DNA from: a virus
Taxonomy: Duplodnaviria > Heunggongvirae > Uroviricota > Caudoviricetes
Virus record (IMG/VR): IMGVR_UViG_3300011337_000467
Span: 31,723-95,722 of that record
Length of the DNA: 64,000 nucleotides
Direction: 5' to 3' (one strand)
Shown: piece after piece, positions 1,913-40,359 of the stretch
How positions within the stretch are numbered: the first letter of the stretch is position 1
Layout of the letters: each line of letters starts with the position of its first letter
The notes under the pieces: model-generated
Database searches by the model: none
What the model saw: only the letters and a program-made list of their open reading frames with translations
What the model was told of the DNA's origin: nothing
Made by a program: the position numbers and the translations under genes

Positions 1913-2698
1913 ATGTCTGACCATTATGCCACACTAGGTGTTGCCCGAACTGCCACACCGGATGAAATCAAACGAGCCTTCCGCAAGTTGGCCTCACAGC
2001 ATCATCCTGACAAAGGTGGCAATACCCAAAAGTTTCAAGAGATACAAGCAGCCTATGACACCCTAGGCGATGCTGCCAAACGAGCTGACTACGACAATCC
2101 ACGCCCTCAGTTTTCTGGCATGCCTGGTGGCGCACACTTCAACATGAATGACATCTTTTCAAGCATGTTTGGTGGCCAATCACCATTTGGGCAACAACCA
2201 CGTAGACAGCAATCGCACACCAGAATGACGTTATGGATCCGCATGACTGATGTGGCACAAGGTGGTACTCGACCAGTAGCAGTGGGCACACCACACGGAC
2301 AAAGCACCATTGAAGTGGAAATACCACTTGGTATCAATGATGGTGACAACGTGCAGTATCAGGGCCTAGCACCTGGTGGAGGAGATTTGGTCATACAGTT
2401 TAGAGTGCATCCAGATCCCTTATGGCAACGCAATGGTCTAGACCTTGTGACTGATGTCACAGCAGATATCTGGAGCATGATTCTAGGATCAGATATCACA
2501 GTACAAACACTTACCGGATCCCAATTGACCACTAGCATGCCGCAGTATACACAACCCAAAACACTCATAAGATTGCGTGGACATGGCCTGCGTGATCGAT
2601 CAGGCAACACTGGTGATCTCATGATCCGTGTGATGCCCACAATACCCAAAACCATTCGCCCCGAATTGCTCGAAGCCATTGAAAAATACCGTGAATAA
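1913..2698 (+). CDS. DnaJ-like co-chaperone (J domain plus DnaJ C-terminal substrate-binding region)
   Basis: 'DYYATLGV..A...EIK.A.RKLA...HPDK' J-domain with the HPD motif. Gly/Phe-rich linker. No zinc-finger CxxCxGxG repeats, so it resembles the DnaJ/CbpA class. Confidence 0.8.
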   Translation: MSDHYATLGVARTATPDEIKRAFRKLASQHHPDKGGNTQKFQEIQAAYDTLGDAAKRADYDNPRPQFSGMPGGAHFNMNDIFSSMFGGQSPFGQQPRRQQSHTRMTLWIRMTDVAQGGTRPVAVGTPHGQSTIEVEIPLGINDGDNVQYQGLAPGGGDLVIQFRVHPDPLWQRNGLDLVTDVTADIWSMILGSDITVQTLTGSQLTTSMPQYTQPKTLIRLRGHGLRDRSGNTGDLMIRVMPTIPKTIRPELLEAIEKYRE

Positions 2699-2710
2699 AT
2701 ATCAAAACAC

Positions 2711-2739
2711 TTGCATGCTGTTTGAAATTGCAGTATAAT
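2711..2739 (+). promoter_or_regulatory. sigma70-type promoter (TTGCAT-17-TATAAT) upstream of the ClpA-like gene
   Basis: TTGCAT at 2711-2716, 17-nt spacer, TATAAT at 2734-2739. AAGGA Shine-Dalgarno before the ATG at 2757. Confidence 0.55.
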
Positions 2740-2756
2740 AACAAAAACTACCAAGG

Positions 2757-5036
2757 ATGCTAATGCAACAAAATCCCGAAATTGAACACATCATTGAACA
2801 AGCAGTGAGCATTGCTCGTGTTGAGAAACATGAGTTTGTGATCACAGAGCATTTATTGCTGGCACTGATTCAGTACGATCCATTCCGCAAGTGCCTGGAT
2901 CGATTTGGTGTGGAAGTCACACAGATGGAACAAGAAATTGTGAATTACTTGAGCAGTCTGCGCAGTATCACAAAAACAGAAGACTATCAGCCAAAGAAAA
3001 CACAGACCATTGAACGCATATTCAACAGGGCCAATGTGCAGGTGATGTTTACAGGGCGTCGAGCAATGACCACTATTGACTTGTATCTGTCAATCATGGC
3101 CGAAACCAACAGCCACGCACACTACTTCTTTCTCAAGTATGGCGTGAAAAAGACTGAGTTTGTGAAACACTGGGAGTCCAGCTACAATCGACAAGACGTC
3201 AAAATGACTGACAAACAGGCCACAGAAATCTTGACAGAATACTGTACCAATCTTACTGATAGCGCCCGAAACAATCAGTTGGAGCCGTTGATTGGTCGAC
3301 GAGAAGAACTGGCAGAAATGATTGCTGTGTTGGCTCGTAGATTCAAATCAAATGTGCTGATGGTTGGCGATCCTGGTGTGGGCAAGACTTGCATTGTGGA
3401 TGGACTGGCACAAGAACTCATAGCCGGCAACGTGCCAGAGTTCTTGAAAGATCACGAAGTATGGTCGCTAGAGATTGGCACACTGCTGGCAGGATCCAAG
3501 TATCGCGGTGAGTTTGAAGAAAAGTTCAAGGCAGTGATTGCGGCCTTAGAAGCCAAGAAGAAATGCATCCTGTTCATTGACGAAGCACACACCATGCGTG
3601 GTGCTGGATCAGGTTCAAACAGTTCATTAGACTTTGCCAACATGTTGAAGCCTGCTATTACCAAGGGCAGTTTGAAAGTTATTGGGTCAACCACTTGGGA
3701 AGAATACTATGAATCGTTTGAGAAAGATCGCGCACTCATGCGTAGATTCTACCGCTTGAGTATTGATGAGCCGGATACTGCGACCACAGAGCAGATTCTT
3801 ATTGGCTTATCTCCCCGGCTGGAAACGTTTCACAATGTGCTGATCGAAACTGATGCCATAATGAGTGCTGTGGAGTTTGGCAACAGATACATTCACGACA
3901 AAAAGAATCCTGACAAAGCAATTGACTTGTTGGATGCTGCCTGTGCTAGAGAGCGTGTGAAAGATGCTGGTACAATCAAAGTCACTAGGGATCAAATCAT
4001 GGCACAGGTATCGCGTGTGACTTCTGTACCCATGGATCGCTTGCAGAACGAGCGTTCTGCAAAGATTGTGGAACTGGATTCAAACATCAAACAACGGTTG
4101 TATGGTCAAGACGCCGCAGTAGACTCGGTGCTAGAACGTGTGTACATCAACTTCTCAGGTATTGGTCAAGACAAAAAGCCCATTGCTAGTTTCTTGTTCC
4201 TGGGTCCCACAGGCACAGGCAAAACAGAATTGGCTCGATTGTTAGCCGACAACTTGGACATGAAACTGTTGAAATATGACATGAGTGAATATCAAGAACG
4301 CCATACTGTATCAAGTTTGATTGGTGCTCCTCCTGGCTACGTGGGATTTGACGACTCTAATGTGAGTGGTGGCAAACTGATCTCTGACATCAGCAAGAGC
4401 CCATTTGCTGTGTTGTTGTTTGACGAAATTGAAAAAGCACACCCTGATGTGGTAAACATCATGTTGCAGATGTTGGACGAAGGTCGCATCACAGGTGCAA
4501 ACGGCAAGAGTGTGGATCTAAAGAACACTATCATCATCATGACTTCAAACTTAGGAGCACGAGATTCGGAAGCAAATAACATCGGCTTTGGTAGCTTTGA
4601 AAAGACTGGTGAAGATGACCGAGCCCTCAAAGAGTTCTTTAGGCCTGAACTGCGCAACAGGATTGACCAGATTGTCAAGTTTGCCAAGCTGGACACCTTG
4701 GCCATCAAGAAAGTTGTGGTCAAGTTTGTGGATGAACTCAAAACGAGTTTGCTTGCAAAAGGTATACGCCTCAATCTATCCGAATCAGCCGTTGACACAC
4801 TTGCTGACAAAGGCTACGATTCGAAGATGGGTGCGCGACCACTCTCTCGCAAGATTGACGAATTGATCCGTGTGCCGTTGAGCAAGAAGATCTTGTTTGA
4901 TCGCTTGCGTGATTGCTCAATCACTGCTGATGTTGTGGCGGATGAAATTGTGTTTGATGTTCAAGCAGACATCCCGGTGGAAGTTGTGGCCAGTGTGAAC
5001 GCTGATGGAATCATAGTGGTGGACAATGAGAAGTGA
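2757..5036 (+). CDS. ClpA/ClpB-family double-AAA+ ATPase (unfoldase/chaperone)
   Basis: Two AAA modules with Walker A 'GDPGVGKT' and 'GPTGTGKT', Walker B 'LLFDEIEKAH', and sensor region 'IIIMTSN'. The 759-aa length fits ClpA-type proteins without the ClpB middle domain. Confidence 0.85.
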   Translation: MLMQQNPEIEHIIEQAVSIARVEKHEFVITEHLLLALIQYDPFRKCLDRFGVEVTQMEQEIVNYLSSLRSITKTEDYQPKKTQTIERIFNRANVQVMFTGRRAMTTIDLYLSIMAETNSHAHYFFLKYGVKKTEFVKHWESSYNRQDVKMTDKQATEILTEYCTNLTDSARNNQLEPLIGRREELAEMIAVLARRFKSNVLMVGDPGVGKTCIVDGLAQELIAGNVPEFLKDHEVWSLEIGTLLAGSKYRGEFEEKFKAVIAALEAKKKCILFIDEAHTMRGAGSGSNSSLDFANMLKPAITKGSLKVIGSTTWEEYYESFEKDRALMRRFYRLSIDEPDTATTEQILIGLSPRLETFHNVLIETDAIMSAVEFGNRYIHDKKNPDKAIDLLDAACARERVKDAGTIKVTRDQIMAQVSRVTSVPMDRLQNERSAKIVELDSNIKQRLYGQDAAVDSVLERVYINFSGIGQDKKPIASFLFLGPTGTGKTELARLLADNLDMKLLKYDMSEYQERHTVSSLIGAPPGYVGFDDSNVSGGKLISDISKSPFAVLLFDEIEKAHPDVVNIMLQMLDEGRITGANGKSVDLKNTIIIMTSNLGARDSEANNIGFGSFEKTGEDDRALKEFFRPELRNRIDQIVKFAKLDTLAIKKVVVKFVDELKTSLLAKGIRLNLSESAVDTLADKGYDSKMGARPLSRKIDELIRVPLSKKILFDRLRDCSITADVVADEIVFDVQADIPVEVVASVNADGIIVVDNEK

Positions 5037-6717: not shown

Positions 6718-7815
6718 ATGACCACTGTAGTAATCATGCCCGGGGGATTTCATCCTTTCCATGCAGGGCACCTAGCACTTTATCAATCCGCGCAACGGGC
6801 ATTCCCTGACGCTGAAGTTTTTGTGGCAGCCACCAATGATACCTCAGCTAGACCATTTCCGTTTGCAGTAAAAGAAAAACTGGCCAAGCTGGCTGGGGTA
6901 GATGCTGGTCATTTTGTACAGGTTAAATCACCGTTTCGTGCTGAAGAAATTACTAGTAGATTTGATCCTGCTCGGGACACGTTAATTTTTGTGCGTTCAG
7001 ACAAAGACGCTACAAAACAGCCACAGGCCGGCGGCATAAAGAAAGATGGCAATCCTGCGTACTTGCAACCACTGATAGGTGCCAAGCGACTGGAGCCGTT
7101 TGCCAAGCACGCCTACATGGCCTACTTGCCCACAGTGGAGTTTGGTCCCGGAATGACGTCAGCTACAGAAATTCGTAGCGCATGGCCACAATTGAATAAT
7201 CAGCGAAAAACTGCACTAGTAATGAGTCTGTACCCAAAGACTCAAGGCAATCTCAAGCTGGCACAGACTGTGGTCAAAATATTAGACGCAGCAATAGGCA
7301 GCACAGAAAGTGTTACCGAAGCTGTCAAAAAGTGCCCTCCTGCCACACAAGACATTACACTGAATCTCAAGAACAGACAAAAAGCCATCGACGAATATGG
7401 CTACGGACCACTCAACCCAGACATGCCCAACACCAAGTTTTGGATGAAGAAGGTTGACGAATGGAATCTTGACAGCATGGAAGAAGCACAGCAAAGTCTG
7501 TGCGGCAACTGTGCGGCATTTGACATACGTCAAGACACACTAGACTGCATTGCCCAAGGTATTGACAGCGACTCACCCGAGGACGCTGAAGGTGTGATTG
7601 ACGCAGGAGATCTGGGCTACTGCAAGTTCCTAAAATTCAAGTGCGCCAGTCGCAGAACCTGCGATGCCTGGGTCACAGGTGGTCCTCTGATGGACAAACC
7701 TGATGTGGCAGAAATGGACGGACAAAACTTTGTGGGCGGAATGACCGCCAGTTATCAACAACGTGAAAATCAACCCATTGCAGAAGATTACATTGACGAA
7801 CGATCAAACCGATAA
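6718..7815 (+). CDS. Nucleotidyltransferase (HxGH cytidylyl/adenylyltransferase fold) with a Cys-rich C-terminal domain
   Basis: N-terminal 'VVIMPGGFHPFHAGHL' matches the (T/H)xGH signature of class-I nucleotidyltransferases. The C-terminus carries several CxxC-like pairs (CGNCAAF...CKFLKFKC). Confidence 0.5.
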   Translation: MTTVVIMPGGFHPFHAGHLALYQSAQRAFPDAEVFVAATNDTSARPFPFAVKEKLAKLAGVDAGHFVQVKSPFRAEEITSRFDPARDTLIFVRSDKDATKQPQAGGIKKDGNPAYLQPLIGAKRLEPFAKHAYMAYLPTVEFGPGMTSATEIRSAWPQLNNQRKTALVMSLYPKTQGNLKLAQTVVKILDAAIGSTESVTEAVKKCPPATQDITLNLKNRQKAIDEYGYGPLNPDMPNTKFWMKKVDEWNLDSMEEAQQSLCGNCAAFDIRQDTLDCIAQGIDSDSPEDAEGVIDAGDLGYCKFLKFKCASRRTCDAWVTGGPLMDKPDVAEMDGQNFVGGMTASYQQRENQPIAEDYIDERSNR

Positions 7816-7846: not shown

Positions 7847-8932
7847 ATGTATGTAGAAAAAGTCAATCAAGACAAAGTAAAAATATCCGCATGCTGTGTC
7901 AATACTCTTGGCCCAGAAACAGATACAATCGACTTTGATAATGACCTATATCTCCAATCACAGCGTGAGTTAGTTAGATCACGGCAATTGGTGCCTGGTT
8001 GTGATCGTTGTGATAATAATCCCAAAAACTTCAGTTTAAGGGACAGTGCAATTCAACAGTTTAACTCAGTTACAGTAAATCTGAATCAACCAACTCTTAC
8101 CAAATTAGACTGGAATGTGGATCCCATCTGTAATGCTCGTTGCATTCAGTGCAGTTCGCACTTTAGTAGTGCCTGGGCAGCAGAGGATGCGGCGCATGGC
8201 GTAATCATTGATGTGCGAGTAACTAACGCCACCAGGCACAACTCTGCCTGGGAATCCATTGATGTATCTCAATTGACGAGCCTTTATTTCAACGGCGGTG
8301 AACCCATGTTGAGCAAAGAGCCCTTGAAGTTTTTAAGAAAAATTGACCAAATTGGTACTATTTCTCAATTGAACCTATCATTTAATACCAATGGTAGCAT
8401 TAGGCCATCACAGGAGTTTATACAACTGGCAGCCAAGTGTAAATCACTGGTGGTAAATTTCAGTATTGACGGAACTGGATCAGCATTTGAATACATTAGA
8501 AATCCCTTGAACTGGGAAACTGTTGAGCAAAATATTTGTTGGTGGCATGAACAAAACATACCTGTTGTGAGTTTTAACGTGGCCTTTGTATTGGGTGTGT
8601 ACAATATTGACATTGCCGAAGACACTTACAATTGGTTTAGGAATATGCGCCAAACTTACAAAAAAATGTCAGGATTTGTAATTCATCCCTGCTACGGAAT
8701 TTTAGCATTGGAGTACAGTTCTGAAAAACTAAAACAAGTTTGGATGGAAAAATATGCTGGGCATAACTATGTCCACTCCACGATTCGTGACATATTAAAA
8801 AAATCCACCAGCACCCAAGATAACGGAAGCTGGCAACAATATCTAAAATCTATTGACAATAGACGCAATTTAGATTGGACCACGTGCTTGCCTAAACTAC
8901 ATGAGGCCTGGAAAAAATCCGAGTCTTTATAA
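7847..8932 (+). CDS. Radical SAM enzyme (subfamily A; N-terminal Cys-containing extension)
   Basis: 'CNARCIQC' CxxxCxxC cluster and 'FNGGEP' SAM-binding glycine motif. The track ORF starts at 7763 but overlaps the upstream gene, so the start was chosen at Met 7847. The start is uncertain. Confidence 0.55.
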   Translation: MYVEKVNQDKVKISACCVNTLGPETDTIDFDNDLYLQSQRELVRSRQLVPGCDRCDNNPKNFSLRDSAIQQFNSVTVNLNQPTLTKLDWNVDPICNARCIQCSSHFSSAWAAEDAAHGVIIDVRVTNATRHNSAWESIDVSQLTSLYFNGGEPMLSKEPLKFLRKIDQIGTISQLNLSFNTNGSIRPSQEFIQLAAKCKSLVVNFSIDGTGSAFEYIRNPLNWETVEQNICWWHEQNIPVVSFNVAFVLGVYNIDIAEDTYNWFRNMRQTYKKMSGFVIHPCYGILALEYSSEKLKQVWMEKYAGHNYVHSTIRDILKKSTSTQDNGSWQQYLKSIDNRRNLDWTTCLPKLHEAWKKSESL

Positions 8933-8970: not shown

Positions 8971-9891
8971 ATGGCTGATCAAGCACAAACACAAATTCAA
9001 GTCAACATCGATTACTTGAAAACCACTCGAGTTCATATCTGCATGCCCTGTTATGGCGGCCAGCTGACAGAATCAACTTTTATGAGTTTTATCAAATGGG
9101 CCAATACCGCACGCCAACTGGGCATTGATTGGACAGTAGAAACCATGACAAACGAAAGTTTGATCAGTCGTGCTAGAAACACACTCACAGCCAAGTTCTT
9201 GAACACAGAAGGTTCCACACACTTGATGTTTATTGACGCTGACATTGGCTGGGAGCCATGGCACCTACTGGTGTTGCTAGACGCACAAAAAGATGTTATA
9301 GGCGGCCTATACCCAATGAAATCACTGCCTGTGAAATGGTGTGTGAACGGCATTCCTGGCCAAGCAGAAGATCCTACCTCTAACCATGTTGAAGTTACAA
9401 AAACTGGCACTGGTTTCTTGTTGATGAAACGTGAAGTATTTGAGAAATTGAATGCTCACCCCGCTGTGCGTCATTTCAACAATGACATTGGGCTTGACTC
9501 TAGTCTAGACAAATACATGAAAACCTACTTTGACACTGCTGTGCGTGAAAATCGCTACTACTCAGAAGACTGGACATTCTGTGAAAACTGGCGTGATCTG
9601 GGTGGTCAGGTTTGGATTGACAAGCGTATCCTGTTGCGTCACACAGGCACCTATGTGTTTGATTACAACACACATGAACAACTGTACAAGGATCTACGTG
9701 TGATGTTTGATCCCGAAGCTGCTCAAGCTGCCGCTGCAAAGGCCGCTAAGGCCACTGAGGAAGTGGCAGCAATGAATGCTACTCTTGCAGCCACACCAGC
9801 TGTGTTGGCTGATTCTGCCCCTGCAGAAGTCAAAACAGAAGTGTTGGCAAGTAGCAAGAAGAAATCCAAGAAAGAAGCAGCCGCGGCTTAA
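8971..9891 (+). CDS. Putative GT-A-like glycosyltransferase with an Ala/Lys-rich (histone-H1-like) C-terminal tail
   Basis: 'ICMPCYGG..LISRARN..FIDADIGW' resembles a nucleotide-sugar transferase core (DxD-like 'DAD'). The last ~60 aa are AAKAAKA/KKKSKK low-complexity. Confidence 0.3.
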   Translation: MADQAQTQIQVNIDYLKTTRVHICMPCYGGQLTESTFMSFIKWANTARQLGIDWTVETMTNESLISRARNTLTAKFLNTEGSTHLMFIDADIGWEPWHLLVLLDAQKDVIGGLYPMKSLPVKWCVNGIPGQAEDPTSNHVEVTKTGTGFLLMKREVFEKLNAHPAVRHFNNDIGLDSSLDKYMKTYFDTAVRENRYYSEDWTFCENWRDLGGQVWIDKRILLRHTGTYVFDYNTHEQLYKDLRVMFDPEAAQAAAAKAAKATEEVAAMNATLAATPAVLADSAPAEVKTEVLASSKKKSKKEAAAA

Positions 9892-9908: not shown

Positions 9909-12900
9909 ATGCATATTACAGAACTGGACTCCTTTAAACTAAGCGATGCTGTAAAGTTTCACAATCGTCTCAACCCTAAAATCTGGGGGCGAGACGAGCA
10001 CTTGTTGCCCGAGGTGCGTGAAAAACTCATGGCCATTGCGGACAATTTTCGCGAATTTCTTGGCGTGGGCGACCTTGACGTCCGAGACATAACCATCTCA
10101 GGCAGCAATGCTGCCTACAGCTATACTCCATATTCCGACATTGATCTACACCTTGTGGTAGAATTTCCTGCTGACGACGAAGTTTATCAGGAACTGTTCA
10201 ATGCCAAAAAATATCAATACAACGACGAACACAATCTAGCCATTGGCGGCGTGCCTGTGGAATTGTATGTGCAAAATGCAGCCGAATCCCCTGTGAGCCA
10301 AGGCGAGTATTCTATCCCACGTGAAGAATGGATTCAAGTACCACGCAGAAAACGTGCTAGAATTGATGATACCTGTGTGCGAGCCAAGGTAGAAGATTTG
10401 GATGCCAGAATACATTCTGCCATCCAATCTGGCAATGCTGAACACATGAGCAGACTGTGGGACAAGATCAAGTCCATGCGTCAAAGTGGCTTGGATGCTC
10501 ACGGTGAGTTTGGTTGCGAAAACATTGTGTTTAAAATTCTGCGCAACAAAGGCTGCATTAAAGATTTGCGCACAGCCAGAACAGCCGCACAAGATCATGA
10601 ACTAAGTCTAAAAGAACAAGACCATGCTCCGCAATTCCATTGGGGATTTGCAGAAGGCCATCAAGGTCAACCCTACAGCTCACCAGATGGCGTGGCACCC
10701 AGCACACAAATGTTCTTGAACGAAGATGACACTGAAAACATGGTGCAACAGTTCATTCAAGACACTGCTGAACGCTTGGGCATTGAGCGCATGCCTGAAA
10801 TTGTGCTGCATGACAATGATGGATGGAGTGAAGAAAATCATTCGTTTGGCATGTACATTCCCGATCAACATGTGTTGCATGTGAACATTCGCAATCGTCA
10901 TATCATGGATATTTTGCGAACCACAGCACATGAACTGGCACACTGTCGTCAAAATGAATTAGAACAATTGGATCACACATCTGGCAACACAGGGTCACCT
11001 ATAGAAAATGAAGCACACGCTGTGGCAGGCATCATCATGCGAGACTTTGCAGATGCACACCCAGACTTGTTTGACCAAGAAGCCATTCGTGAATCATCAG
11101 GATATATTCCTACCAAGGCACAAGCAAACGATCCACGCTTTAAGATGGCACTAACTGTTGATGTGCAACCAGGACAAACAGGTAAAGAAGCCAACAAGAT
11201 GAGACTGGCTACTGATGCACAAGGTCATCCACAACTGTTGCGAGCAGACGGCAAGATAAAGTTGGCAGAAAGCCTTGCCCAAGAATTTGAATTGTTTGAA
11301 GAACAAGACCTGTTTGAAATAAACATGGGCAGCAAGAGTCTACGCCGAGAAGCAGCCAAGACAGGTGCCATTGCTGGCATGGAATTTGAAATGATTGTGC
11401 CTGGCATGGAGTCTGAAGATCCTGAACAGGAACCCGACTATGATCAGGATGAACGCTGTGTTAGTATTGATGATGCTGTGAACTTCTTTCATGACGGCGA
11501 CTACAACGGTCGAAGAGAAGTTGCTGAATTACGTGACAGAATGTACAACGATTTCACTGAATGGCAGGATGATAAAATTCGCGATTCCTGGGGCATGGAC
11601 GGCGAAGAATACCTCAGAGAATGGATTGTGAATAATGTAGATGAAGACGAGTGGGCAGACCTTGATGCAGACAAAACCGATTCACTTGATCAATTTGTTG
11701 CTAATGTTTATGCTGATCCTTCTAGTGATTACTACAATCAGGCCTTTGATGAATACCGTGAAGAAAATCAGGACAACTGGGACGAAAGCGATTGGTTAGA
11801 TGCCGAAGACCTTGACCGCATGAGTGGCATTGAAAGTGCCTATGATATAACTTGGCCATACTGGACTAGCATAAACAGCGGCGAGATTGACGCAGATCAA
11901 GTGGCTGACGAATTCAGTCAGGCTGTGGGCCGTGAAGTGCGAGTGAACACAAGATATCATCAGTCCGGTGCCAGACCCGATCCAAGCAATCAGTTCTATG
12001 TGGTGGAACCAGACGGCAGTTTGGAAGGCGACAATCCAGGCGACGAAGGCCTGGAGTTTGTGAGCCCGCCCATGCCCATAGATGAACTATTGAAAGATTT
12101 GAACGCTGTCAAGTCCTGGGCTGGACGTATGGGTGTTTATACCAACAGTTCAACTGGCTTGCACATCAACATTTCAGTGCCTGACTACAGCAGAGACCGA
12201 TTGGACTTTGTGAAATTGGCCCTTCTGTTGGGCGACGAGTATGTGCTCAAACAATTTGGTCGTAGCTCAAATACCTATACCAAATCCGCCTTGGGCAAGG
12301 TGCGTGATCGTGTGCGATCCAACCCTGAAGACGCACAACGTTTACTGGACAAGATGAAGGGCCAAATGGGTGAACTGGCTTCTAAAGCCATCCATTCAGG
12401 CAGCACAGACAAATACACATCAATCAACACCAAAGACGGACACATTGAATTCCGCTCGCCCGGTGGCGACTGGTTGGACGACAACTTTGACAAGATTGAA
12501 AACACTCTGTTGAGATTCACAGTGGCTATGAGTGCGGCATTAAATCCTGAAGCCTATCGAGAAGAATACCAAAAGAAACTGTACAAGCTGTTGACTCAGG
12601 ATCAAAAGGATTCAGACACAATCCGATACTTCTCAGACTATGTGGCAGGCAAGATTCCCAAGGCTGCCTTGCGTAGTTTTGTGAAACAAGCACAACTAGA
12701 ACGCAAGGTAAAACGCGGTGAAGCCGGCAATCAAAAGATGTGGTGGAGCGTTACCAATCCCCCGCAAAGTTCTGCCGGTATAGAAGTTGTTGCTACCTCT
12801 CGAGAAGAAGCCATTGAAAAGGCCCTAGGCCCAGATGGCTATCCTTCGTGGACCAACACAAGACAATCCATTGTGGCCAAGCCCGTGCGTCCATACGAAG

Positions 12901-14915
12901 AAAAACCTGCACAAGATCAAGACAGTGCAACCTCTGGCAATTGGGGTGTTTGGGTAGCAATGCTTGATCGCTATGCTGAAATGAATGTTGACGGTCAGTC
13001 TGTAACTAGAAGATTTACTGACCAGGCGGCTGCGCAAGACTGGATACAGGATTACAACACACGGCAACCAGGAAATGGTCTTGCATTAGTTGCTCAAGAG
13101 ATTGAACCATCAGAACCACGAGACACATCACAGTTTGGTGCAGCACGTGGTGCTCCAAACTGGGAAATTCGACGTAACAGTGATCAAGAAGTTGTTCATC
13201 GCTTCAATGCAGACAATCAAAATGCTGCTATGATCCAAGCAACTGATTTTATGAACACTCAAGGATGGAGTAACGACGATTACACTATTCAATCAGCCAA
13301 CAGTCAAACAAATGTAAACCCTTTACGCCCAACTGGTCCAGGTCCGTGGGAAGTGGCCAACAGAAACAACAACCAAGTGTACTACAATACAGAGTTCACA
13401 AATCGCGGTGCCGCAGAATCAGAAGCAAGAACTTGGCTAAGTCAAAATGGCCACAATCCCAACGACTTTGAAGTAAGAACTAGAGAAGGTTCTAGATCAG
13501 ATGCTGAACAAAACGGTATCATTGACATTGAGCCAGACCTAGAATTTGCAAGCCCACAACAATACGAAATTTTTAATAATGATACTGGGCAAATTGCTGT
13601 TGCATTCCTTGCCCCCGATGATAGTGCGGCTATACAAAGATTACTACAGTACCGTGAAACCCATGGAGATGCTGACTATCGTACCCGCCGGTCTGCTGTT
13701 GCAGGATCCACAGCAGCCTTGGCACAACAGAGAGCCACGCCAGGCACATTCTCTGGTGCATGGAAGGTGTTGGTCAACGGTGAAGAAGTTTATAGATTCT
13801 CAGGCGTGGGTAATAGTCAATCGGATGCCAACAGAGTTGCAGCCACTTGGTTGCGAAACAATGGACGGGGCGTGTCAGGCGAAGGCTTTGAAGTGTATCC
13901 TATCATGACAGAAGGCAAGGATCGCTACGGCAATTTTGATCCTCCTGGTCCAGAGACACCGCCCACAATGCCAGCTGGCACTGTGCGAGTGGATGTGAGT
14001 GATGTGTATGACTGGTACAAACTGGGTCAGCATATTTCAAACATGAAGGGTCTGGGCAAACATGACTTTGGCAAAGGACCACCCAGTGCTATCATAAGTT
14101 TTGGTGACGAAGATCTAGAACATCAGTATATACAGGCATTGAAACAAACTGGGCTAACCACTACTGACATTGATCCTGTGGATCCCGCACAACCTGCAGG
14201 CATGCCGCGTCAAAAGACTGATCCTACCTACAATGTAACTGAAGCTGATGCCAGCGACTATGAACTGCATGATAGACCCAAGCTGGACCAAGTGTTGGCC
14301 AAATGCTGTCGCATGGTTGTACAAGGTCAACAGCGAGATCCCAAACGCTATGGACAAGTTGCTGCCTGTGTGATTGACCCCGACAACCGAATGATCTACG
14401 GCATCAACTTGCCTGCTAAAGATGGCACACGCCGCCATGCTGAACGAGTGGCCATAGACAAGTATAGAAAATCCATTGGTGAAATTCCACAAGGTAGTAT
14501 TGTGGTTACAACTTGCAGTCCCTGCAACTCGCCCATGGAAGAACGCCACGGAGAAAGTTGCAAAGACTTGTTAAACTCTGTAGGCATACACAAAGTATAT
14601 GCCGGCTATCAAGACCCCACACAGCATGACGATTCGGACGCTGACTTCCGTGTGTATGTGACTGAGAATGACCAACTATGGGGCGAATGTCAGTTGTTTG
14701 CTCAAACATTCTTGGGCAAGGAAGAACTGCCTGAAAACTTTGCTGATGGTCGGAATCCGCAAGACAAGGGCGATTCAAAAAGACACGGCGTGCCCACCAA
14801 AGCATCAGTAAGCACCTTGCGTAAAGTGGCCAAACAAGGCGGTCGCAAAGGGCAACTGGCACATTGGATGGCCAACATGAAGGCTGGGCGGGCTAAAGCC
14901 AAACGCAATAAATAA
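9909..14915 (+). CDS. Giant polyvalent protein: nucleotidyltransferase + HExxH metallopeptidase + GS-like amidoligase + 5 tandem repeats + CDA-like nucleotide deaminase
   Basis: Motifs in order: 'GSNAAYSYTPYSDIDLHLVV' (minimal NTase G[GS]...DxD), 'HELAH' (Zn peptidase), 'GLEFVSPP...GLHINISV' (amidoligase_2-like), five ~45-aa repeats, then 'HAE...TCSPCNSPMEE' (deaminase H[AC]E/PCxxC). Confidence 0.7.
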   Translation: MHITELDSFKLSDAVKFHNRLNPKIWGRDEHLLPEVREKLMAIADNFREFLGVGDLDVRDITISGSNAAYSYTPYSDIDLHLVVEFPADDEVYQELFNAKKYQYNDEHNLAIGGVPVELYVQNAAESPVSQGEYSIPREEWIQVPRRKRARIDDTCVRAKVEDLDARIHSAIQSGNAEHMSRLWDKIKSMRQSGLDAHGEFGCENIVFKILRNKGCIKDLRTARTAAQDHELSLKEQDHAPQFHWGFAEGHQGQPYSSPDGVAPSTQMFLNEDDTENMVQQFIQDTAERLGIERMPEIVLHDNDGWSEENHSFGMYIPDQHVLHVNIRNRHIMDILRTTAHELAHCRQNELEQLDHTSGNTGSPIENEAHAVAGIIMRDFADAHPDLFDQEAIRESSGYIPTKAQANDPRFKMALTVDVQPGQTGKEANKMRLATDAQGHPQLLRADGKIKLAESLAQEFELFEEQDLFEINMGSKSLRREAAKTGAIAGMEFEMIVPGMESEDPEQEPDYDQDERCVSIDDAVNFFHDGDYNGRREVAELRDRMYNDFTEWQDDKIRDSWGMDGEEYLREWIVNNVDEDEWADLDADKTDSLDQFVANVYADPSSDYYNQAFDEYREENQDNWDESDWLDAEDLDRMSGIESAYDITWPYWTSINSGEIDADQVADEFSQAVGREVRVNTRYHQSGARPDPSNQFYVVEPDGSLEGDNPGDEGLEFVSPPMPIDELLKDLNAVKSWAGRMGVYTNSSTGLHINISVPDYSRDRLDFVKLALLLGDEYVLKQFGRSSNTYTKSALGKVRDRVRSNPEDAQRLLDKMKGQMGELASKAIHSGSTDKYTSINTKDGHIEFRSPGGDWLDDNFDKIENTLLRFTVAMSAALNPEAYREEYQKKLYKLLTQDQKDSDTIRYFSDYVAGKIPKAALRSFVKQAQLERKVKRGEAGNQKMWWSVTNPPQSSAGIEVVATSREEAIEKALGPDGYPSWTNTRQSIVAKPVRPYEEKPAQDQDSATSGNWGVWVAMLDRYAEMNVDGQSVTRRFTDQAAAQDWIQDYNTRQPGNGLALVAQEIEPSEPRDTSQFGAARGAPNWEIRRNSDQEVVHRFNADNQNAAMIQATDFMNTQGWSNDDYTIQSANSQTNVNPLRPTGPGPWEVANRNNNQVYYNTEFTNRGAAESEARTWLSQNGHNPNDFEVRTREGSRSDAEQNGIIDIEPDLEFASPQQYEIFNNDTGQIAVAFLAPDDSAAIQRLLQYRETHGDADYRTRRSAVAGSTAALAQQRATPGTFSGAWKVLVNGEEVYRFSGVGNSQSDANRVAATWLRNNGRGVSGEGFEVYPIMTEGKDRYGNFDPPGPETPPTMPAGTVRVDVSDVYDWYKLGQHISNMKGLGKHDFGKGPPSAIISFGDEDLEHQYIQALKQTGLTTTDIDPVDPAQPAGMPRQKTDPTYNVTEADASDYELHDRPKLDQVLAKCCRMVVQGQQRDPKRYGQVAACVIDPDNRMIYGINLPAKDGTRRHAERVAIDKYRKSIGEIPQGSIVVTTCSPCNSPMEERHGESCKDLLNSVGIHKVYAGYQDPTQHDDSDADFRVYVTENDQLWGECQLFAQTFLGKEELPENFADGRNPQDKGDSKRHGVPTKASVSTLRKVAKQGGRKGQLAHWMANMKAGRAKAKRNK

Positions 14916-14921
14916 ACAATC

Positions 14922-15269
14922 ATGACTTACAAAGAGATTCTCGAAGCCTGCTGGGACGGTTATCGCCGCAAACCCGGCACCACCGAGTATTCCAAAGGCA
15001 GTTGTGAAAAGATCAGCGAGCAGGATCTGGAAGAAAATCTCCGAAACTGGTTCAAAGAAAAATGGGTACGCTTTGGGCCTGATGGCAAAATCCGTGGTAA
15101 TTGTGCCAGAGACAGTTCAAAAGAAGGCAAGCCCAAGTGTTTGCCGCAGGCCAAGGCACATGCTCTAGGCAAGAAAGGCCGAGCATCAGCAGCAGCCAGA
15201 AAACGCAGACAAGATCCCAATCCCAACCGCAAAGGACCGGCCATTAATGTGGCCACAAAGAAAAAATGA
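14922..15269 (+). CDS. Small basic protein (Lys/Arg-rich C-terminus), possibly a nucleic-acid-binding or internal virion protein
   Basis: 115-aa ORF 6 nt after the giant gene. C-terminus 'KKGRASAAARKRRQDPNPNRKGP'. Confidence 0.4.
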   Translation: MTYKEILEACWDGYRRKPGTTEYSKGSCEKISEQDLEENLRNWFKEKWVRFGPDGKIRGNCARDSSKEGKPKCLPQAKAHALGKKGRASAAARKRRQDPNPNRKGPAINVATKKK

Positions 15270-16489
15270 TTATAACTGACTTATTTGAATCTCATCAAAC
15301 CTGCCCCGAATGCGGCGGTCCTTCGTTTTCAGACTTGATCCTGGCTGAGAAAAAAGATGCCTGTTACTATAAAGTCAAAGCGTCGGCTAAGGTATGGCCA
15401 TCAGCCTATGCGTCAGGACGACTGGTTCAGTGTCGTAAAAAAGGCGCTGACAACTATGGCAACAGCAAGAACGAAGGTGTGATGGAAATGGACAAATCAC
15501 AAACTCCTCCGGGTCGTGATGGTAGTAACGATTCAGACGCCGGCAAGAAAGAATACACTGCTAAAGCAACCACTGCTAAAAAAGTAGCCCAGGATGCTGA
15601 AAAGATTCTAAACAAAGAGTTAAACAAGAAGAAAGGCATGGCGGAAGGCTTCCCTCATGATGTTGACCACATGCCGGGTCCTGTGATTCGCAATGCTGAT
15701 ATGACTACAGATAATGTCAAGACCAAAGACCAAGCAGAATGGGACAGAGCCACTGATAGCATTAACGCACGGGTGTTTGATGACATGAGTGAATTTCGCA
15801 CCGACAGCAAAGGTGAAACAGTTGTCGGTGATAGCGCAGTTTGGGCCAAGTGGGACAACGCCACGCAAACAGGTTGGTTCAATGCTAAAGGTCGCCCATT
15901 AAAGCCTTGGCCTGTTAAAGAGCAAGGTGTGGCAGAAGACCAGTTGGCAGAAAAGTCAGTGAGCCAAGCACAATTCCGCACCATGGCAGCGGCAGCACAC
16001 AATCCCAAATTTGCCAAGAAAGTTGGCATCAGTCCGGCAGTGGCAAAAGAGTTTCACTCTGCAGACAAAAACAGCAACTACAAAAAACTTCCTGACCGCA
16101 CCACAGAAGGCGAAGTTGAAAAAACCAAAACAGGCATGATACATCGTAGCAGTGGTGCATATGGTGGTGGTGAAGCACCACGTGCTTATTATGATCCGGG
16201 CAAATATGCCAAAGACATTGATCATTTAGACAAAGGTTTAACTGCCAAATTAGACAAGAGTATGGGCATTAAATGGCCACATGGTAACAAAAAATCAGGC
16301 ATGGACGAAGGCGAACAACAAAAGGGTGCTGACTATCGTGATCCGCCCGAAGCCGACTACGGCGATGACTATCAAGACATGGTTGCCAGAGTGAAAAAAT
16401 TAGCTGGACTGGGTCCGTTAAAAACTGTGTATGATCCTGCCCGGCGTGTGTACCGAAATGTACCAACAGCTCAACAACCTAAAAAATGA
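15266..16489 (+). CDS. Lys-rich protein with an N-terminal zinc-ribbon (CPECGG...C)
   Basis: ATGA start/stop overlap with the upstream gene. 'CPECGG' plus downstream Cys. Long K/E/D-rich low-complexity body. Confidence 0.4.
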   Translation: MIITDLFESHQTCPECGGPSFSDLILAEKKDACYYKVKASAKVWPSAYASGRLVQCRKKGADNYGNSKNEGVMEMDKSQTPPGRDGSNDSDAGKKEYTAKATTAKKVAQDAEKILNKELNKKKGMAEGFPHDVDHMPGPVIRNADMTTDNVKTKDQAEWDRATDSINARVFDDMSEFRTDSKGETVVGDSAVWAKWDNATQTGWFNAKGRPLKPWPVKEQGVAEDQLAEKSVSQAQFRTMAAAAHNPKFAKKVGISPAVAKEFHSADKNSNYKKLPDRTTEGEVEKTKTGMIHRSSGAYGGGEAPRAYYDPGKYAKDIDHLDKGLTAKLDKSMGIKWPHGNKKSGMDEGEQQKGADYRDPPEADYGDDYQDMVARVKKLAGLGPLKTVYDPARRVYRNVPTAQQPKK

Positions 16490-16989
16490 GAATCTCAGAC
16501 ATCGTAACTGAAAACACCCTAGGAACTGTGTTGACATGGCCTTGGGTTGTTAACAAAATCAACAGCGCAATGAAAGCCACGGGCTGGAAAGGGCAACGTC
16601 AAAGCGATGGCACTTTTATGTTTAGTGTGAAAGGTCAAGAAACTGATGACCAGTTTTATTTTGTTATTATAGAAAACGCTGGGGAAGGTTTCTTTTCATA
16701 CGCATTAGGCACAGTAGAAGAAGGTGATCCATACATTGATGATGCTTATAGAGGTAAATTGCCCAACACAGAAGCCAGTGTAAGCGAGTTAATGAATGAG
16801 ATTCGTGAAGGGTTTGGACTAAACGAAGAGCAGCTAAACGAGCTCACCTTTATGGGTTCACAATGCACCAAAGACTGTTCCGGACACCGTGCTGGATACA
16901 ATTGGAGTGTTGCTCGAGGACGCAAGAGTGCAGCTTCATGGTCAAACTCATTCAACAAAGGCGCTGAATTAGCAGCCACTGGACATTGA
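16486..16989 (+). CDS. Hypothetical protein
   Basis: ATGA overlap with the upstream gene; 167 aa. Confidence 0.4.
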   Translation: MRISDIVTENTLGTVLTWPWVVNKINSAMKATGWKGQRQSDGTFMFSVKGQETDDQFYFVIIENAGEGFFSYALGTVEEGDPYIDDAYRGKLPNTEASVSELMNEIREGFGLNEEQLNELTFMGSQCTKDCSGHRAGYNWSVARGRKSAASWSNSFNKGAELAATGH

Positions 16990-17004: not shown

Positions 17005-17814
17005 ATGATTGATATCTGCACAGTTGTATTTGAATCCGAACTTGACATTCTAAAACTACAAGCCCGTAGCATTGAGCTATATTGTAAAGACATCGGCTTG
17101 AAAAATATCTTTGTAATGGTGAATGATCTTAGCCGAGTAGATCCTGCCTGGTATGGTGCATTTGCTGATCATGTAAAAATCGTTCCAAGATCTGCATTTG
17201 GTTGCGCTTGGAGTGACAACGGTTGGGTCAGTCAACAAGTGTTAAAGATATTAGGTGCAGCTCAGAGTGAGAATACCTGGTGCATGATTGTAGATGCCAA
17301 AACACTATTTGTGCGACCAATTGAGTTGGATCAAGTGATAGTAGACGGGCGTGCTGCTACAGGAAGTATGCCAATCTATCCTGTATTTGATGCCAGCCGA
17401 AACATAACCAACCAGTTGTTTGATATTGATTTGCCAGCACAGTTAGGCCCCGGTGGTGTGCCATTTTTTGTTGAACCCAGTTTAACAAGAGAAATGATTC
17501 AAGAAGTAGAACACAGAACTGGCCAAGACTTTAGTGACTACTTTCAACAACAGGGTCGGCTTACAGAGTTCATATTGTATTCAGGCTATGTGTGGTACCG
17601 AGATTGCACATTTGACAAGAGATATCACACACAATCAAACATTCATCCTGCTAATCTTTGCCACAGTGAAACAGGCATCTTTGATTCAAAACTTAACACA
17701 ATGAATCAGCCCAAAACTCTCACAGTAAGCATACACAGAAATGCATGGTCACAACTAAGCAAAGAACAACAGCAACAATATCATACATTGTTAGCCGAAA
17801 GAGGCATCTTATGA
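17005..17814 (+). CDS. Hypothetical protein
   Basis: 269-aa ORF; no motif recognised. Confidence 0.4.
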   Translation: MIDICTVVFESELDILKLQARSIELYCKDIGLKNIFVMVNDLSRVDPAWYGAFADHVKIVPRSAFGCAWSDNGWVSQQVLKILGAAQSENTWCMIVDAKTLFVRPIELDQVIVDGRAATGSMPIYPVFDASRNITNQLFDIDLPAQLGPGGVPFFVEPSLTREMIQEVEHRTGQDFSDYFQQQGRLTEFILYSGYVWYRDCTFDKRYHTQSNIHPANLCHSETGIFDSKLNTMNQPKTLTVSIHRNAWSQLSKEQQQQYHTLLAERGIL

Positions 17815-18326
17815 AAGCCTTGTGCTTGGTAGCACATCCAGATGACTGTGTGATATTTGCACTCAGTTATATTCACAATCATGCTGACCATGACTGGACT
17901 ATTGGCTACTTGACCTATACAGAGCAAGATCCTCGTGGATCAGAACTCTCTGACTTTTGGCACAAGCGTGGAATCAACTGTGTGTTCTTGGGCTTTGAAG
18001 ATCATTGGCACGACAATGAACAACAACGATTCACATGCTGGTCTGCACTAGATGCAGAAACAGCCTGCGCACAGTTGGCAGCCAACTACGACTTGATTCT
18101 CACACACGACAAGCAGGGGGATTATGGACACATACATCATCGTTTGGTTTACCGAGCTGTAGCCAATCATCCACGAGTGGTTACTTTTGCTCCGCCGGGC
18201 CAAGGAACTGTGACCTACACTGTGCCACCAGATACATATAGCATAGATGAACTACCACTGCATGGTGAGATTGTGCGTGGCTTTCATCCCATAACACATC
18301 AAAACGATTACAAGGAACGTCAATGA
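17811..18326 (+). CDS. LmbE/PIG-L family N-acetylglucosaminyl deacetylase-like protein
   Basis: 'LVAHPDDCVIFA' matches the AHPDDE zinc-binding signature of PIG-L/LmbE deacetylases. Start chosen at the ATG overlapping the upstream stop (ATGA at 17811). Confidence 0.55.
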   Translation: MKALCLVAHPDDCVIFALSYIHNHADHDWTIGYLTYTEQDPRGSELSDFWHKRGINCVFLGFEDHWHDNEQQRFTCWSALDAETACAQLAANYDLILTHDKQGDYGHIHHRLVYRAVANHPRVVTFAPPGQGTVTYTVPPDTYSIDELPLHGEIVRGFHPITHQNDYKERQ

Positions 18327-21060: not shown

Positions 21061-22125
21061 TTATAGAGTAGCAACAGCAGAGGCTGTTTTCCCGCAAGTG
21101 CTAACACACTGATATGGTCTGCCTTCGGCAATGCTGGATTTGCTCCATGCTTGTTCTACACTTTCAAACCAGGCCAAACAATGTTCCAATGGATACTGCA
21201 ACGCATTGTTTTCTTGTACCATGGGTGCCAGTTCCTTGTTGCCCGGATGACTCATGGTGTGTGGATAAAACCCTAAAAAGCAACATGGATACACACTACC
21301 ATCTGCGGCAATGTATATTTCTTGATTTTGTTTGTGAATACAGTTCATTGACAAATTTGGAACATCTTTGTGAGAACGATATGTTTTAGAATCATACCAA
21401 GTGACATGATTTTCTAACAATGCTTCAATTGTTGGAACTTCACCAGGTTCAGCGAGTCCAATCACATGACTAAACTTTCCATCTCTAGTGAATACTGGTC
21501 CACGATCTCGTCCATCGTATATGTTTTCAAATTCAAAAAAACCCAGATCATGTGCCAGCTGGCGGCATTCTTGTTCTTGATGGCGATTGTGATCAAAAGG
21601 CACAAATCGCCACACAGCCCGACCTCCTGCACGAATTAGTGCTTGTGCATGATCAATGATTCTGTGCCAATCTGTGTCTTGACGATATAATTTGTGAGTG
21701 TCACTCATGCCGTCGATTGCAAATCCCACTGTGACTCTGGGTAGTGCTAGTCTGCTCCACCAGTCTGGGCTGCGTAAACTACCATTGGTATTGATATGAA
21801 CTGGCACGTTGTGAGCAGCAATATATTCAACTATGTCTACCGCATCACGAGCTGATGCAAAATCACCAAGATTGCCATTAAATGTAATGCCTCTAAATCC
21901 AAACACTGTTGGTATTCGACCATTAATAGGTTCGTCAGGGCGAATTAGTTGCGCCAGCAGTTCAGGAGTAACAATGTGTTTGAAATCTGCTAGAGACAAT
22001 TCACATGTTGGGTATCCAGAATTGTATTCGTACCCTCTATAATTTCGCATGCACATGGGACATCTTGCATTGCATCTTGTGGTCAATTCAATATGCAATC
22101 GACGAATTTCTGATAGTTTTAACAT
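21061..22125 (-). CDS. Radical SAM enzyme (subfamily B; C-terminal Cys-rich SPASM/twitch-like extension)
   Basis: 'IELTTRCNARCPMC' CxxxCxxC within ~25 aa of the chosen start, and 'PCCF' plus further Cys near the C-terminus. Strong paralogy with 50795..51820. Confidence 0.6.
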   Translation of the reverse strand: MLKLSEIRRLHIELTTRCNARCPMCMRNYRGYEYNSGYPTCELSLADFKHIVTPELLAQLIRPDEPINGRIPTVFGFRGITFNGNLGDFASARDAVDIVEYIAAHNVPVHINTNGSLRSPDWWSRLALPRVTVGFAIDGMSDTHKLYRQDTDWHRIIDHAQALIRAGGRAVWRFVPFDHNRHQEQECRQLAHDLGFFEFENIYDGRDRGPVFTRDGKFSHVIGLAEPGEVPTIEALLENHVTWYDSKTYRSHKDVPNLSMNCIHKQNQEIYIAADGSVYPCCFLGFYPHTMSHPGNKELAPMVQENNALQYPLEHCLAWFESVEQAWSKSSIAEGRPYQCVSTCGKTASAVATL

Positions 22126-22162: not shown

Positions 22163-22462
22163 ATGCAGACCAAATCAGTTCAAGTTCATTGTGATGTTTA
22201 TTGCAAGTGGGATGGCAATGACACCCGCTATAGACTGTATGTAAATGACGAGTTGTTTACAGAAAGATCATGGATTTGGAATGGTAAAGAGTATTACTTA
22301 GAAGAAGTGATAGTGATTGAAGCACCTCCAGGATTGTACAAAATTAAATATGAACTGGTGGAACCGTGTGGCAGCAAACTAAAAATAAGAAACATGCGAG
22401 TAGTCAGTAAAAATGCTGCGATACACGACGATCAAATAACATTGGAAATACCATCATCATGA
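22163..22462 (+). CDS. Hypothetical protein
   Basis: 100-aa ORF starting at Met 'MQTKS', divergent from the minus-strand radical SAM gene. Confidence 0.35.
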   Translation: MQTKSVQVHCDVYCKWDGNDTRYRLYVNDELFTERSWIWNGKEYYLEEVIVIEAPPGLYKIKYELVEPCGSKLKIRNMRVVSKNAAIHDDQITLEIPSS

Positions 22463-22677
22463 GAATGAAAGAAATAATGGAAAATGCGTCAGTAGGTGGC
22501 ACTAGTTCAGGGTCTATAGCACCTGTAAGTCAGCCATTGGGCATGGTGTCAAGATCTGGCGGATCCATGTTAAGTGGTAAATATGTAACAGGCTCTGATC
22601 CTACACCGAACACGCCTAAGGAATACAAAAGGAATAAACATGTTAGCGGACGCTTTAAAAACTCTCCTGGCAACTGA
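22459..22677 (+). CDS. Small Gly/Ser-rich hypothetical protein
   Basis: ATGA overlap with the upstream gene. 72 aa. The 3' end overlaps the Dps-like gene start. Confidence 0.3.
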   Translation: MRMKEIMENASVGGTSSGSIAPVSQPLGMVSRSGGSMLSGKYVTGSDPTPNTPKEYKRNKHVSGRFKNSPGN

Positions 22678-23767: not shown

Positions 23768-24136
23768 ATGAAACTTGCTGATTTATTTGAAAACGATAGT
23801 TTGACAGATTATTTCAAACAGCTACAAAAAAATAATCCTCAATTTGCCAATCTCCGTATACATGGTGATCCAGAACATGACGAGCTACGCAAACAAGATC
23901 GAACAGCGTATCTGGCTCGACAAACACAAGCAGCAAAATCTGCAGCAGCAGATGCAGCGTCAGTTGATGTTGATGCATTGAAAAGAGAACTGTCTGCAAA
24001 ACAAGACAAATATAAACAACTAGGCGGCGACAGTTATCAATATGCCGACCGCATGATGCCCCGAGACCTCGAGGCACAGGCATTACACCAACAGATCAAT
24101 TCCCTAGCGAGAAGAATTCAAGCCGCAGGTGGCTAA
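23768..24136 (+). CDS. Hypothetical protein
   Basis: 122-aa ORF 2 nt after the previous stop. Confidence 0.4.
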   Translation: MKLADLFENDSLTDYFKQLQKNNPQFANLRIHGDPEHDELRKQDRTAYLARQTQAAKSAAADAASVDVDALKRELSAKQDKYKQLGGDSYQYADRMMPRDLEAQALHQQINSLARRIQAAGG

Positions 24137-36061: not shown

Positions 36062-36113
36062 ATACTTTACAATTACACAAAGGTCATCCACGACCTAAAC
36101 TCGGAGAATAAAA

Positions 36114-36806: not shown

Positions 36807-36916
36807 TTATTATATCTAACAAAACTGGTAACATTCAATTTCCAGTTGAAGAAGGATTGTTGGAATGGTTGCAAGCAACCTATCCCTACTCTCAGTACCA
36901 CTTGGCGGAGATTTAA
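36803..36916 (+). CDS. Micro-ORF (37 aa) coupled on both sides by overlapping start and stop codons
   Basis: ATG overlaps the folE stop (ATGA at 36803) and its TAA abuts the next ATG (TAAATG). It exactly fills the inter-genic gap. Confidence 0.3.
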   Translation: MIIISNKTGNIQFPVEEGLLEWLQATYPYSQYHLAEI

Positions 36917-39761: not shown

Positions 39762-39797
39762 GTATTTCTCTAAGCGGCCTGTCCGGCATCATCCCGC

Positions 39798-39826
39798 TAT
39801 ACAAACTCTGCTGCCTATGCTATAAT
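39798..39826 (+). promoter_or_regulatory. Candidate promoter (TATACA-17-TATAAT) upstream of queD
   Basis: Perfect -10 TATAAT at 39821-39826 with a 4/6 -35 at 39798-39803. GGAGG Shine-Dalgarno follows. Confidence 0.4.
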
Positions 39827-39844
39827 GTCATAGGAGGACAAATA

Positions 39845-40342: not shown

Positions 40343-40359
40343 TATAACAAGGAAAAATC

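Follow-up and report, generated by a model that had tools for sequence, protein, structure and literature searches.

The stretch of DNA analyzed here (the window) comprises 64,000 nucleotides (nt), positions 31,723 to 95,722 of IMG/VR virus record IMGVR_UViG_3300011337_000467. It contains a gene for a 1668-amino-acid (aa) protein in which a nucleotidyltransferase (NTase), a zincin-like metallopeptidase, an amidoligase, a repeat array, and a zinc-dependent deaminase follow one another in a single open reading frame (ORF) (Table 1). A preliminary description based on the letters alone had reported this ORF, and the reading frame with its ATG start stands as described. Four independent contigs, each from a different sample (JGI 3300011339, Ga0153700_10005, 90.9 kb; JGI 3300011338; two Logan runs), encode this protein without any difference, which rules out an assembly or fusion artefact. 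All motifs named in the preliminary description were found where it had placed them: GS-x10-DID of the NTase (aa 65-79), HELAH of the zincin (aa 341-345), EFVSPP (aa 716-721) and GLHINISV (aa 750-757) of the amidoligase, and HAE (aa 1510-1512), CSPC (aa 1536-1539), and the distal Cys (aa 1551) of the deaminase. Profile or fold matches bear out all four enzyme domains, and PF12224 and PF00383, the Pfam families proposed for the amidoligase and deaminase, both exceed the gathering threshold.

In the N-terminal half, the first domain is placed in the NTase superfamily because of its conserved GS...DxD...E motif and its fold matches. Predicted catalytic residues are G65, S66, D77, D79, and E118; PF01909 (NTP_transf_2) scores 18.1 bits (E 0.0036), below its cut-off of 21. 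The zincin residues H341, E342, H345, and E366 are invariant in all relatives, and fold search matches this domain to Wss1, SprT, and the ArdC peptidase domain; a Pfam scan of the zincin gave nothing at threshold. The amidoligase has a large acidic helical insert at about aa 530-690 and invariant residues E492, E494, E716, H752, E847, and R849. PDB sequence and profile searches with the protein returned only a weak match to RibD.

The C-terminal half begins with the repeat array, which had been claimed earlier and holds in part. Three units are significant by iterated hidden Markov model (HMM) search (aa 1084-1127, 1145-1189, and 1283-1331; nt 13158-13289, 13341-13475, and 13755-13901), and a further three are visible only in the AlphaFold2 (AF2) model, which displays six beta-beta-alpha-beta units. 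The HMM was built from the best-conserved unit and iterated over 120 family members until it converged; shuffled controls gave no matches, and the number of units per relative was 1-4. The array has no Pfam family match, nor do domain X and the tail.

The deaminase matches PF00383 with 42 bits (cut-off 25; E 9e-11), and it is predicted with high confidence in the AF2 model of aa 931-1668. Foldseek placed RibD (2hxv, E 6.9e-6, and 3zpc) first, followed by dCMP deaminase, ADAT2/3, and guanine deaminase. The zinc site is of the RibD type, H-A-E ... S-P-C-x11-C, as shown by phmmer alignment to 2hxv and by two family alignments. The CSPC-type zinc site reported earlier is thus partly upheld: H1510, C1539, and C1551 are the ligands, and CSPC lacks conservation at its first Cys. 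Since the catalytic H-x-E and both Cys ligands (H1510, E1512, C1539, C1551) are invariant across 109 deaminase homologs, the enzyme is probably active. It resembles the RibD deaminase domain in its cytidine deaminase (CDA) fold and H-A-E ... P-C-x(n)-C site, and RibD is its best match in both structure and sequence. Unlike RibD, it occurs only on phage contigs, lacks the reductase domain, and is joined to either a basic tail or the polyvalent protein; with 18.2 bits against a cut-off of 156 for the RibD equivalog TIGR00326, it falls outside full-length RibD.

The preliminary description had stressed deamination of nucleotides or DNA and had suggested the enzyme as a source of non-canonical bases. 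The first emphasis was overstated, as the closest enzyme is a small-molecule deaminase and only about 20% of close relatives have the domain, which makes it an optional cassette; for the second, nothing was found that links the deaminase to such bases. An explanation in which the deaminase is central, making non-canonical bases in phage DNA or mutating host DNA, appears very improbable. The invariant active site and the FolE, QueD, and radical SAM genes of the phage, which are suggestive of base modification, would suit it, but the nearest structures are RibD domains acting on a free pyrimidine nucleotide, not APOBEC/DddA-type enzymes or T4 Cd, and a family in which the cassette is dispensable argues against it. 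Domain X, the deaminase, and the tail had no matches among GenBank phage proteins. The 7-deazaguanine pathways described so far are not known to need such a deaminase.

The host is an uncultured freshwater jumbo phage related to T4. The window is densely packed and carries 74 of its 84 ORFs on one strand, a B-family DNA polymerase, and three tRNAs (Met-CAT, Arg-TCT, and Leu-TAA, clustered at its end). The polymerase shares 51% identity with its counterpart in Sinorhizobium phage Phosso and 47% with the one in Agrobacterium phage Atu_ph07; Rak2/GAP32/CBB-type jumbo myophages come next. A search of 5.8 billion proteins found more than 1,500 relatives of the 1668-aa protein on contigs reaching 365 kb, and the family contigs of 320-365 kb are of the T4-related jumbo-phage type. 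An exhaustive search with aa 1-1000 gave 1,916 clusters at 50% identity with E<=1e-30. A search of GenBank phages for near-identical DNA gave no match.

Within this family, aa 1-1000 (NTase, zincin, and amidoligase) plus one terminal repeat form a constant core found in 119 of 119 close relatives. Beyond the core the proteins differ. Among the 120 relatives listed, GH19 is present in 15 (six of them also with LysM), and M23, M48, and GNAT occur once each; these cassettes are sometimes added beside the deaminase rather than replacing it. Judged from these comparisons, the C-terminus is a landing pad for exchangeable, putative effector cassettes. A peptidoglycan hydrolase carried on a signal-less protein of 1,400-2,000 aa fits a virion-delivered protein. 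The RibD-like deaminase is also widespread on similar contigs as a protein in its own right, 155-270 aa long (proteins P0121-P0230; loci L009 and L010), with swappable short basic tails of at least five types, including ENFADG...KRHG...LRKVAK, LSFLGSPCTKDCSGHRAGY, a PF19846 module, and the KRKRKLRKAAYGPGPYGW type, each following a [LIVM]xE junction. The tails may bind DNA or serve in capsid retention. In one relative with deaminase, LysM, and GH19 (P0008), the next gene encodes a protein of the ADP-ribosyltransferase exotoxin family (L006 6349-7326), and a GIY-YIG nuclease gene follows.

In T4, Alt and IPI-III, which are packaged and ejected, are substrates of the prohead protease gp21, with cleavage after L/I-X-E (PMC9026906); in related jumbo phages, cleavage occurs after S/A-X-E (PMC9026906, PMC5694885). 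Family alignments of the 1668-aa protein show eight [LIVM]-x-E sites kept in 69-100% of relatives, with the middle residue varying freely (aa 3-5, 234-236, 270-272, 393-395, 452-454, 468-470, 1333-1335, and 1607-1609). All eight are within inter-domain linkers of low predicted local distance difference test (pLDDT) score; conserved [LIVM]-x-E inside folded domains has just one to three different middle residues. As a control, no other pair of residue class and residue at positions i and i+2 occurs more than twice in the linkers, against eight occurrences of [LIVM]-x-E. The motifs thus sit at module boundaries, as do the L/I-X-E cleavage motifs of gp21-processed head-internal proteins of T4. 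The N-terminus, MHITE/LDSF (family MNIxE/LDSY; the slash stands after the motif), is similar to MELITE/LFDE of T4 Alt.

The same junctions could instead be recognized by the protein's own zincin, which would make it a self-processing polyprotein. The modules would then be freed inside the capsid, in the cell that makes the phage, or once injected, and the zincin would also cut free-standing deaminases and small basic proteins in trans. Zincin autoprocessing is the model for polyvalent proteins in PMC5512222, and both the invariance of the zincin and its likeness to Wss1, SprT, and ArdC would agree with it, as would most of the data. However, T4-type prohead serine proteases are documented to cut after L/I-X-E, no zincin of [LIVM]-x-E specificity was found in this analysis, and the Alt-like and capsid-targeting-like leaders indicate head-assembly machinery. 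We regard zincin processing alone as rather unlikely, although the two models are not mutually exclusive.

Split genes and neighbors extend the pattern. Many genomes have the family divided precisely at such junctions. The amidoligase part stands as a gene of its own in 35 independent clusters (50% identity), where it is preceded by a leader of 12-25 aa with M[RK][YF]x[ED][IL]... at its start and [LM]xE/[IV]NMSP at its end. One example is MKYQEIKKIKEDEDLFE/INMSP, and this junction equals aa 468-470 of the 1668-aa protein. Genes with only the NTase and zincin also exist, with other modules coming next, and [LIVM]xE marks the boundary between deaminase and tail in 85 of 87 tailed free-standing deaminases, which cover at least five tail types. 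Given the conserved cleavage-type motifs and the split genes, the modules need not stay linked. Three ORFs follow the polyvalent gene; the first two are strings of short basic modules that are highly conserved, and the acidic third shares the leader only. Their leaders, MTYKEILE/A, MIITDLFE/S, and MRISDIVTE/N, are akin to the T4 capsid-targeting sequence, and the first, directly 3' of the polyvalent gene, may be compared with MKTYQEFIAE/A of IPII/IPIII. Six of the 84 window ORFs show the leader pattern, where 1.3 would be expected (P 0.002); four of these follow one another as the genes at 9909-16989. By sequence, the three ORFs are probable co-packaged small proteins. Two more small ORFs of the window have a capsid-targeting-like leader (MRMKEIME... 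and MKLADLFE...) and may be packaged cargo. In the ORFs at 14922-16489, a 50-aa block (aa 27-76 of the 407-aa ORF) shares 80% identity with hypothetical proteins from marine Synechococcus myophages, and another, DUF3008-like block matches PHROGs annotated as "virion structural protein."

Virion data come from Atu_ph07, in which the amidoligase has a homolog, gp196 (AUZ94978.1; 30% identity over 255 aa, E 9e-30, PF12224), encoded two genes from the portal gene. In purified Atu_ph07 virions gp196 was detected with 14 unique peptides and 30% coverage (PMC6102473 supplement), and the phage has a T4 gp21 homolog, gp204 (PMC6102473). The likeness of gp196 includes the C-terminal helical extension of the amidoligase and an L-T-E near its N-terminus; unlike the 1668-aa protein, it is a stand-alone protein of 500 aa without NTase, zincin, repeats, or deaminase. 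The adjacent gp195 "nucleotidyltransferase" was considered as a relative of the NTase domain and rejected, as it is RlaP-type, non-homologous, and absent from the virion list. Gp204 itself (L016 1086-1715) opens MSTKLTE/H, with L-x-E near the N-terminus; T4 gp21 likewise has an N-terminal L-x-E, LIE-9 (PMC9026906). Virion proteomics of RsoM2USA covered only 10 gel bands and was uninformative.

The hydrolase cassettes, the T4-type linker motifs, the Alt-like N-terminus, and the virion protein gp196 together suggest packaging and injection. We infer from them that the 1668-aa protein is a polyvalent cargo protein of a T4-related jumbo myophage, packaged in the head, processed by the prohead protease, ejected, and acting on the host; we put the probability of this interpretation at roughly 0.55. 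The 188-kDa precursor would enter the prohead, possibly by means of its short Alt-like leader, and a gp21-type prohead serine protease of the phage would cut it after the [L/I/V/M]-x-E linker motifs. The predicted products are the NTase (26 kDa), zincin (14 kDa), amidoligase with repeats (97 kDa), domain X with deaminase (30 kDa), and a basic peptide (6 kDa), which would be ejected alongside the DNA and be active in the newly infected cell.

Several observations weigh against delivery in the virion. No recognized head or tail gene lies within 10 kb on either side of the polyvalent gene, so a late or virion-gene context is missing. The T4 late promoter TATAAATA has one match against 1.7 expected, which is uninformative and gives no T4-type late promoter signal. 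A gp21-type protease was not placed on contigs of the lineage by IMG/VR contig intersection, which gave no shared contigs, by tblastn of the retrieved loci, or in the 10 kb beyond the window end. Processing might instead fall to the zincin within the protein itself. The [LIVM]xE and leader patterns were drawn up post hoc from sequences that are related to one another. The GenBank phage protein search gave piecewise matches only and no full-length fusion, and virion presence is documented for one homolog, gp196, rather than for a full-length relative. Standalone PF12224 genes of LUZ24-like and phiEco32-like phages are early-region and metabolic-type, and the genes around the polyvalent gene are metabolic-type as well.

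Table 1. Features of the window (nucleotide positions; sites and residues are numbered on the 1668-aa protein).
Feature	Position	Strand	Remarks
DnaJ and ClpB-like AAA+ chaperone	1913-5036		upstream of polyvalent gene
Envelope/sugar-type enzymes	6718-7815, 8971-9891, 17005-18326		cytidylyltransferase-like, glycosyltransferase-like (phrog_1574), DUF6492, PIG-L deacetylase
Radical-SAM enzymes	7847-8932, 21061-22125 (-), 29575-30567, 41070-43043, 50795-51820
Polyvalent protein ORF	9909..14915	+	ATG start, 1668 aa, 187.9 kDa, pI 4.9
Leader MHITE	9909..9923	+	I-x-E; family consensus MNIxE/LDSY; similar to T4 Alt MELITE/LF
Pol-beta-type NTase and helical domain, aa 6-236	9924..10616	+	matches phrog_36119; motif and fold
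Disordered linker, aa 237-272	10617..10724	+	ends in L270-N-E272; L234-K-E236 just before, in NTase part
Minimal zincin-like metallopeptidase, aa 273-395	10725..11093	+	H341-E-L-A-H345, E366; ends in invariant I393-R-E395
Linker with conserved SGYIPT, aa 396-470	11094..11318	+	sites L452-A-E454 and L468-F-E470; split-gene relatives start here
Glutamine-synthetase-fold amidoligase PF12224, aa 471-940	11319..12728	+	above gathering threshold; fold search agrees
Array of about six small beta-beta-alpha-beta repeats, aa 941-1335	12729..13913	+	ends in M1333-T-E1335
Conserved domain X, aa 1336-1445	13914..14243	+	contains PETPPTMPAGTVRVDVSDVYDWYKLGQHISN; AF2 confidence low
RibD-like CDA-fold zinc deaminase, aa 1446-1609	14244..14735	+	H1510, E1512, C1539, C1551; ends in L1607-P-E1609
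Basic helical tail module, aa 1610-1668	14736..14912	+	6.4 kDa, pI 11.8; near-identical to tail of free-standing deaminase P0132
Three downstream ORFs	14922..16989	+	115 aa (pI 10.0), 407 aa (pI 8.9), 167 aa (pI 4.8)
Small ORF, MRMKEIME...	22459-22677
Small ORF, MKLADLFE...	23768-24136
Putative hypermodification-type gene region	34528-43872
GTP cyclohydrolase I	36150-36806		hypermodification-type cluster
PTPS/QueD	39845-40342		hypermodification-type cluster
Vut_1/YhhQ-family transporter	40360-40986		hypermodification-type cluster
B12-binding radical SAM	41070-43043		hypermodification-type cluster
NAD-epimerase, DegT aminotransferase, aminotransferase, HIT protein, GT2, methyltransferase			other members of hypermodification-type cluster
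Asn-synthase-like amidotransferase	53780-55315	-	same hypermodification-type gene set
tRNA cluster	63594-63851		Met-CAT, Arg-TCT, Leu-TAA

Genes for DnaJ, ClpB, a radical SAM enzyme, glycosyltransferase-like and cytidylyltransferase proteins, and small basic ORFs lie within 10 kb on either side of the polyvalent gene. This setting bears on another explanation, an unpackaged cytoplasmic multi-enzyme whose nucleotidyl-activating, ATP-dependent amide-ligating, and deaminating domains would jointly build or modify a metabolite, nucleotide, DNA base, or envelope component together with the radical-SAM, sugar-modifying, and 7-deazaguanine-type neighbors. PF12224 genes of LUZ24-like and OM43 phages occur in early or replication modules beside GATase and ATP-grasp genes, and free-standing deaminase genes are found near radical-SAM and acyl-activating genes; both observations, like the metabolic-type neighbors, are consistent with such an enzyme. 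However, the deaminase is missing from about 80% of relatives, cell-wall hydrolases, GNAT, or peptidases replace or supplement it, and this variability and cassette exchange disfavor an obligate pathway. In addition, gp196 of Atu_ph07 is a virion protein, the cleavage-type motifs and split genes indicate that linkage of the modules is dispensable, and no GATase, ATP-grasp, or COOH-NH2 ligase gene adjoins the polyvalent gene. The multi-enzyme is therefore judged unlikely. The amidoligases of LUZ24-like, phiEco32-like, and OM43 phages share PF12224 and the glutamine-synthetase-like fold with the 1668-aa protein but are encoded on their own in early regions, in clusters that include GATase, ATP-grasp, and COOH-NH2 ligase genes.

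Polyvalent proteins are giant polypeptides of unrelated enzymes, encoded by phages and conjugative elements and predicted to be processed and delivered with DNA (Iyer, Burroughs, Anand, de Souza & Aravind 2017; PMC5512222). The preliminary description had assigned the 1668-aa protein to this architecture class, and by the definition of PMC5512222 the assignment is sound: one phage ORF has at least two unrelated catalytic domains, and the zincin hub (alpha, three beta strands, alpha-HExxH, alpha-E) is present. Further likenesses are the ArdC/Wss1-like fold of that hub, the Pol-beta NTase, and the lysozyme and GNAT domains in relatives of the 1668-aa protein. The main text of PMC5512222 never mentions an amidoligase and treats deaminases as a fold comparison only; its NTases are minimal, belong to Firmicute conjugative elements, and are fused to ArdC-N. 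In contrast, the NTase here has the ANT/AadA-like two-domain form, and the family has a fixed core, a variable C-terminus, and junction motifs of the prohead-protease type. A literature search on polyvalent proteins with deaminases found nothing further relevant beyond PMC5512222. For the countering of host defenses early in infection, which the preliminary description had put forward as a role, PADLOC returned no meaningful match. No paralogous copy of any module was found elsewhere in the window.

Comparison with Alt and IPI-III of T4 gives likenesses of a different kind: a short leader ending in I/L-x-E (MELITE/L in Alt, MHITE/L here), C-terminal processing as well (predicted here), small basic companions with capsid-targeting-type leaders, and a phage of the T4-related assemblage. 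There is no homology past the leader, and Alt is a single ADP-ribosyltransferase, compared to a five-module precursor here. Cleavage and packaging are proven in T4; for the 1668-aa protein we infer them. What is new is a previously undescribed, very large family architecture with an unusually explicit processing and targeting signature.

A broader idea, which we offer as tentative and somewhat doubtful, is that this freshwater jumbo-phage lineage, abundant and so far uncultured, may run a plug-and-play "ejectome" in which amidoligases and RibD-like deaminases are new classes of injected effector. The cargo would consist of enzymes and small basic peptides, all with T4-like leaders and [L/I]-x-E junctions. 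Candidate enzymes are the NTase, zincin, amidoligase, RibD-like deaminase, GH19/LysM, M23, and GNAT; in one relative, the neighboring gene encodes an ADP-ribosyltransferase. With leaders and junctions in common, cargo could be freely fused, split, and swapped, and then freed by the prohead protease. Both would have host molecules as targets: the amidoligase, for example, might ligate a tag to a host protein, and the deaminase might deaminate a nucleotide-derived immune signal or pool.

If virion delivery of the 1668-aa protein is correct, a glutamine-synthetase-like amidoligase and a RibD-like deaminase would join the known repertoire of phage-injected proteins, and the capsid-targeting and gp21-processing logic of T4 would be scaled up in jumbo phages to modular cargo with thousands of variants. 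The junction motif would then let packaged cargo of uncultured phages, and its mature fragments, be predicted from sequence by a simple rule, and the separated modules would be candidates for anti-defense or host-takeover screening, or for use as enzyme reagents.

The order from DnaJ/ClpB through the polyvalent gene, including the ORF just upstream of it, is kept in a 331-kb contig (L005), where a radical-SAM gene also lies about 8 kb downstream. Atu_ph07 too encodes ClpB and DnaJ (PMC6102473). Enzymes of the envelope or sugar type flank the polyvalent gene. Two parts of the window contain genes suggestive of 7-deazaguanine-type and sugar-based hypermodification of DNA or nucleotides, the region at 34528-43872 and the Asn-synthase-like gene on the minus strand (Table 1). 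The window also has at least five radical-SAM enzymes in 64 kb, which is unusually many for a segment of phage DNA, and this set includes one of the SPASM type and one of the B12-binding type.

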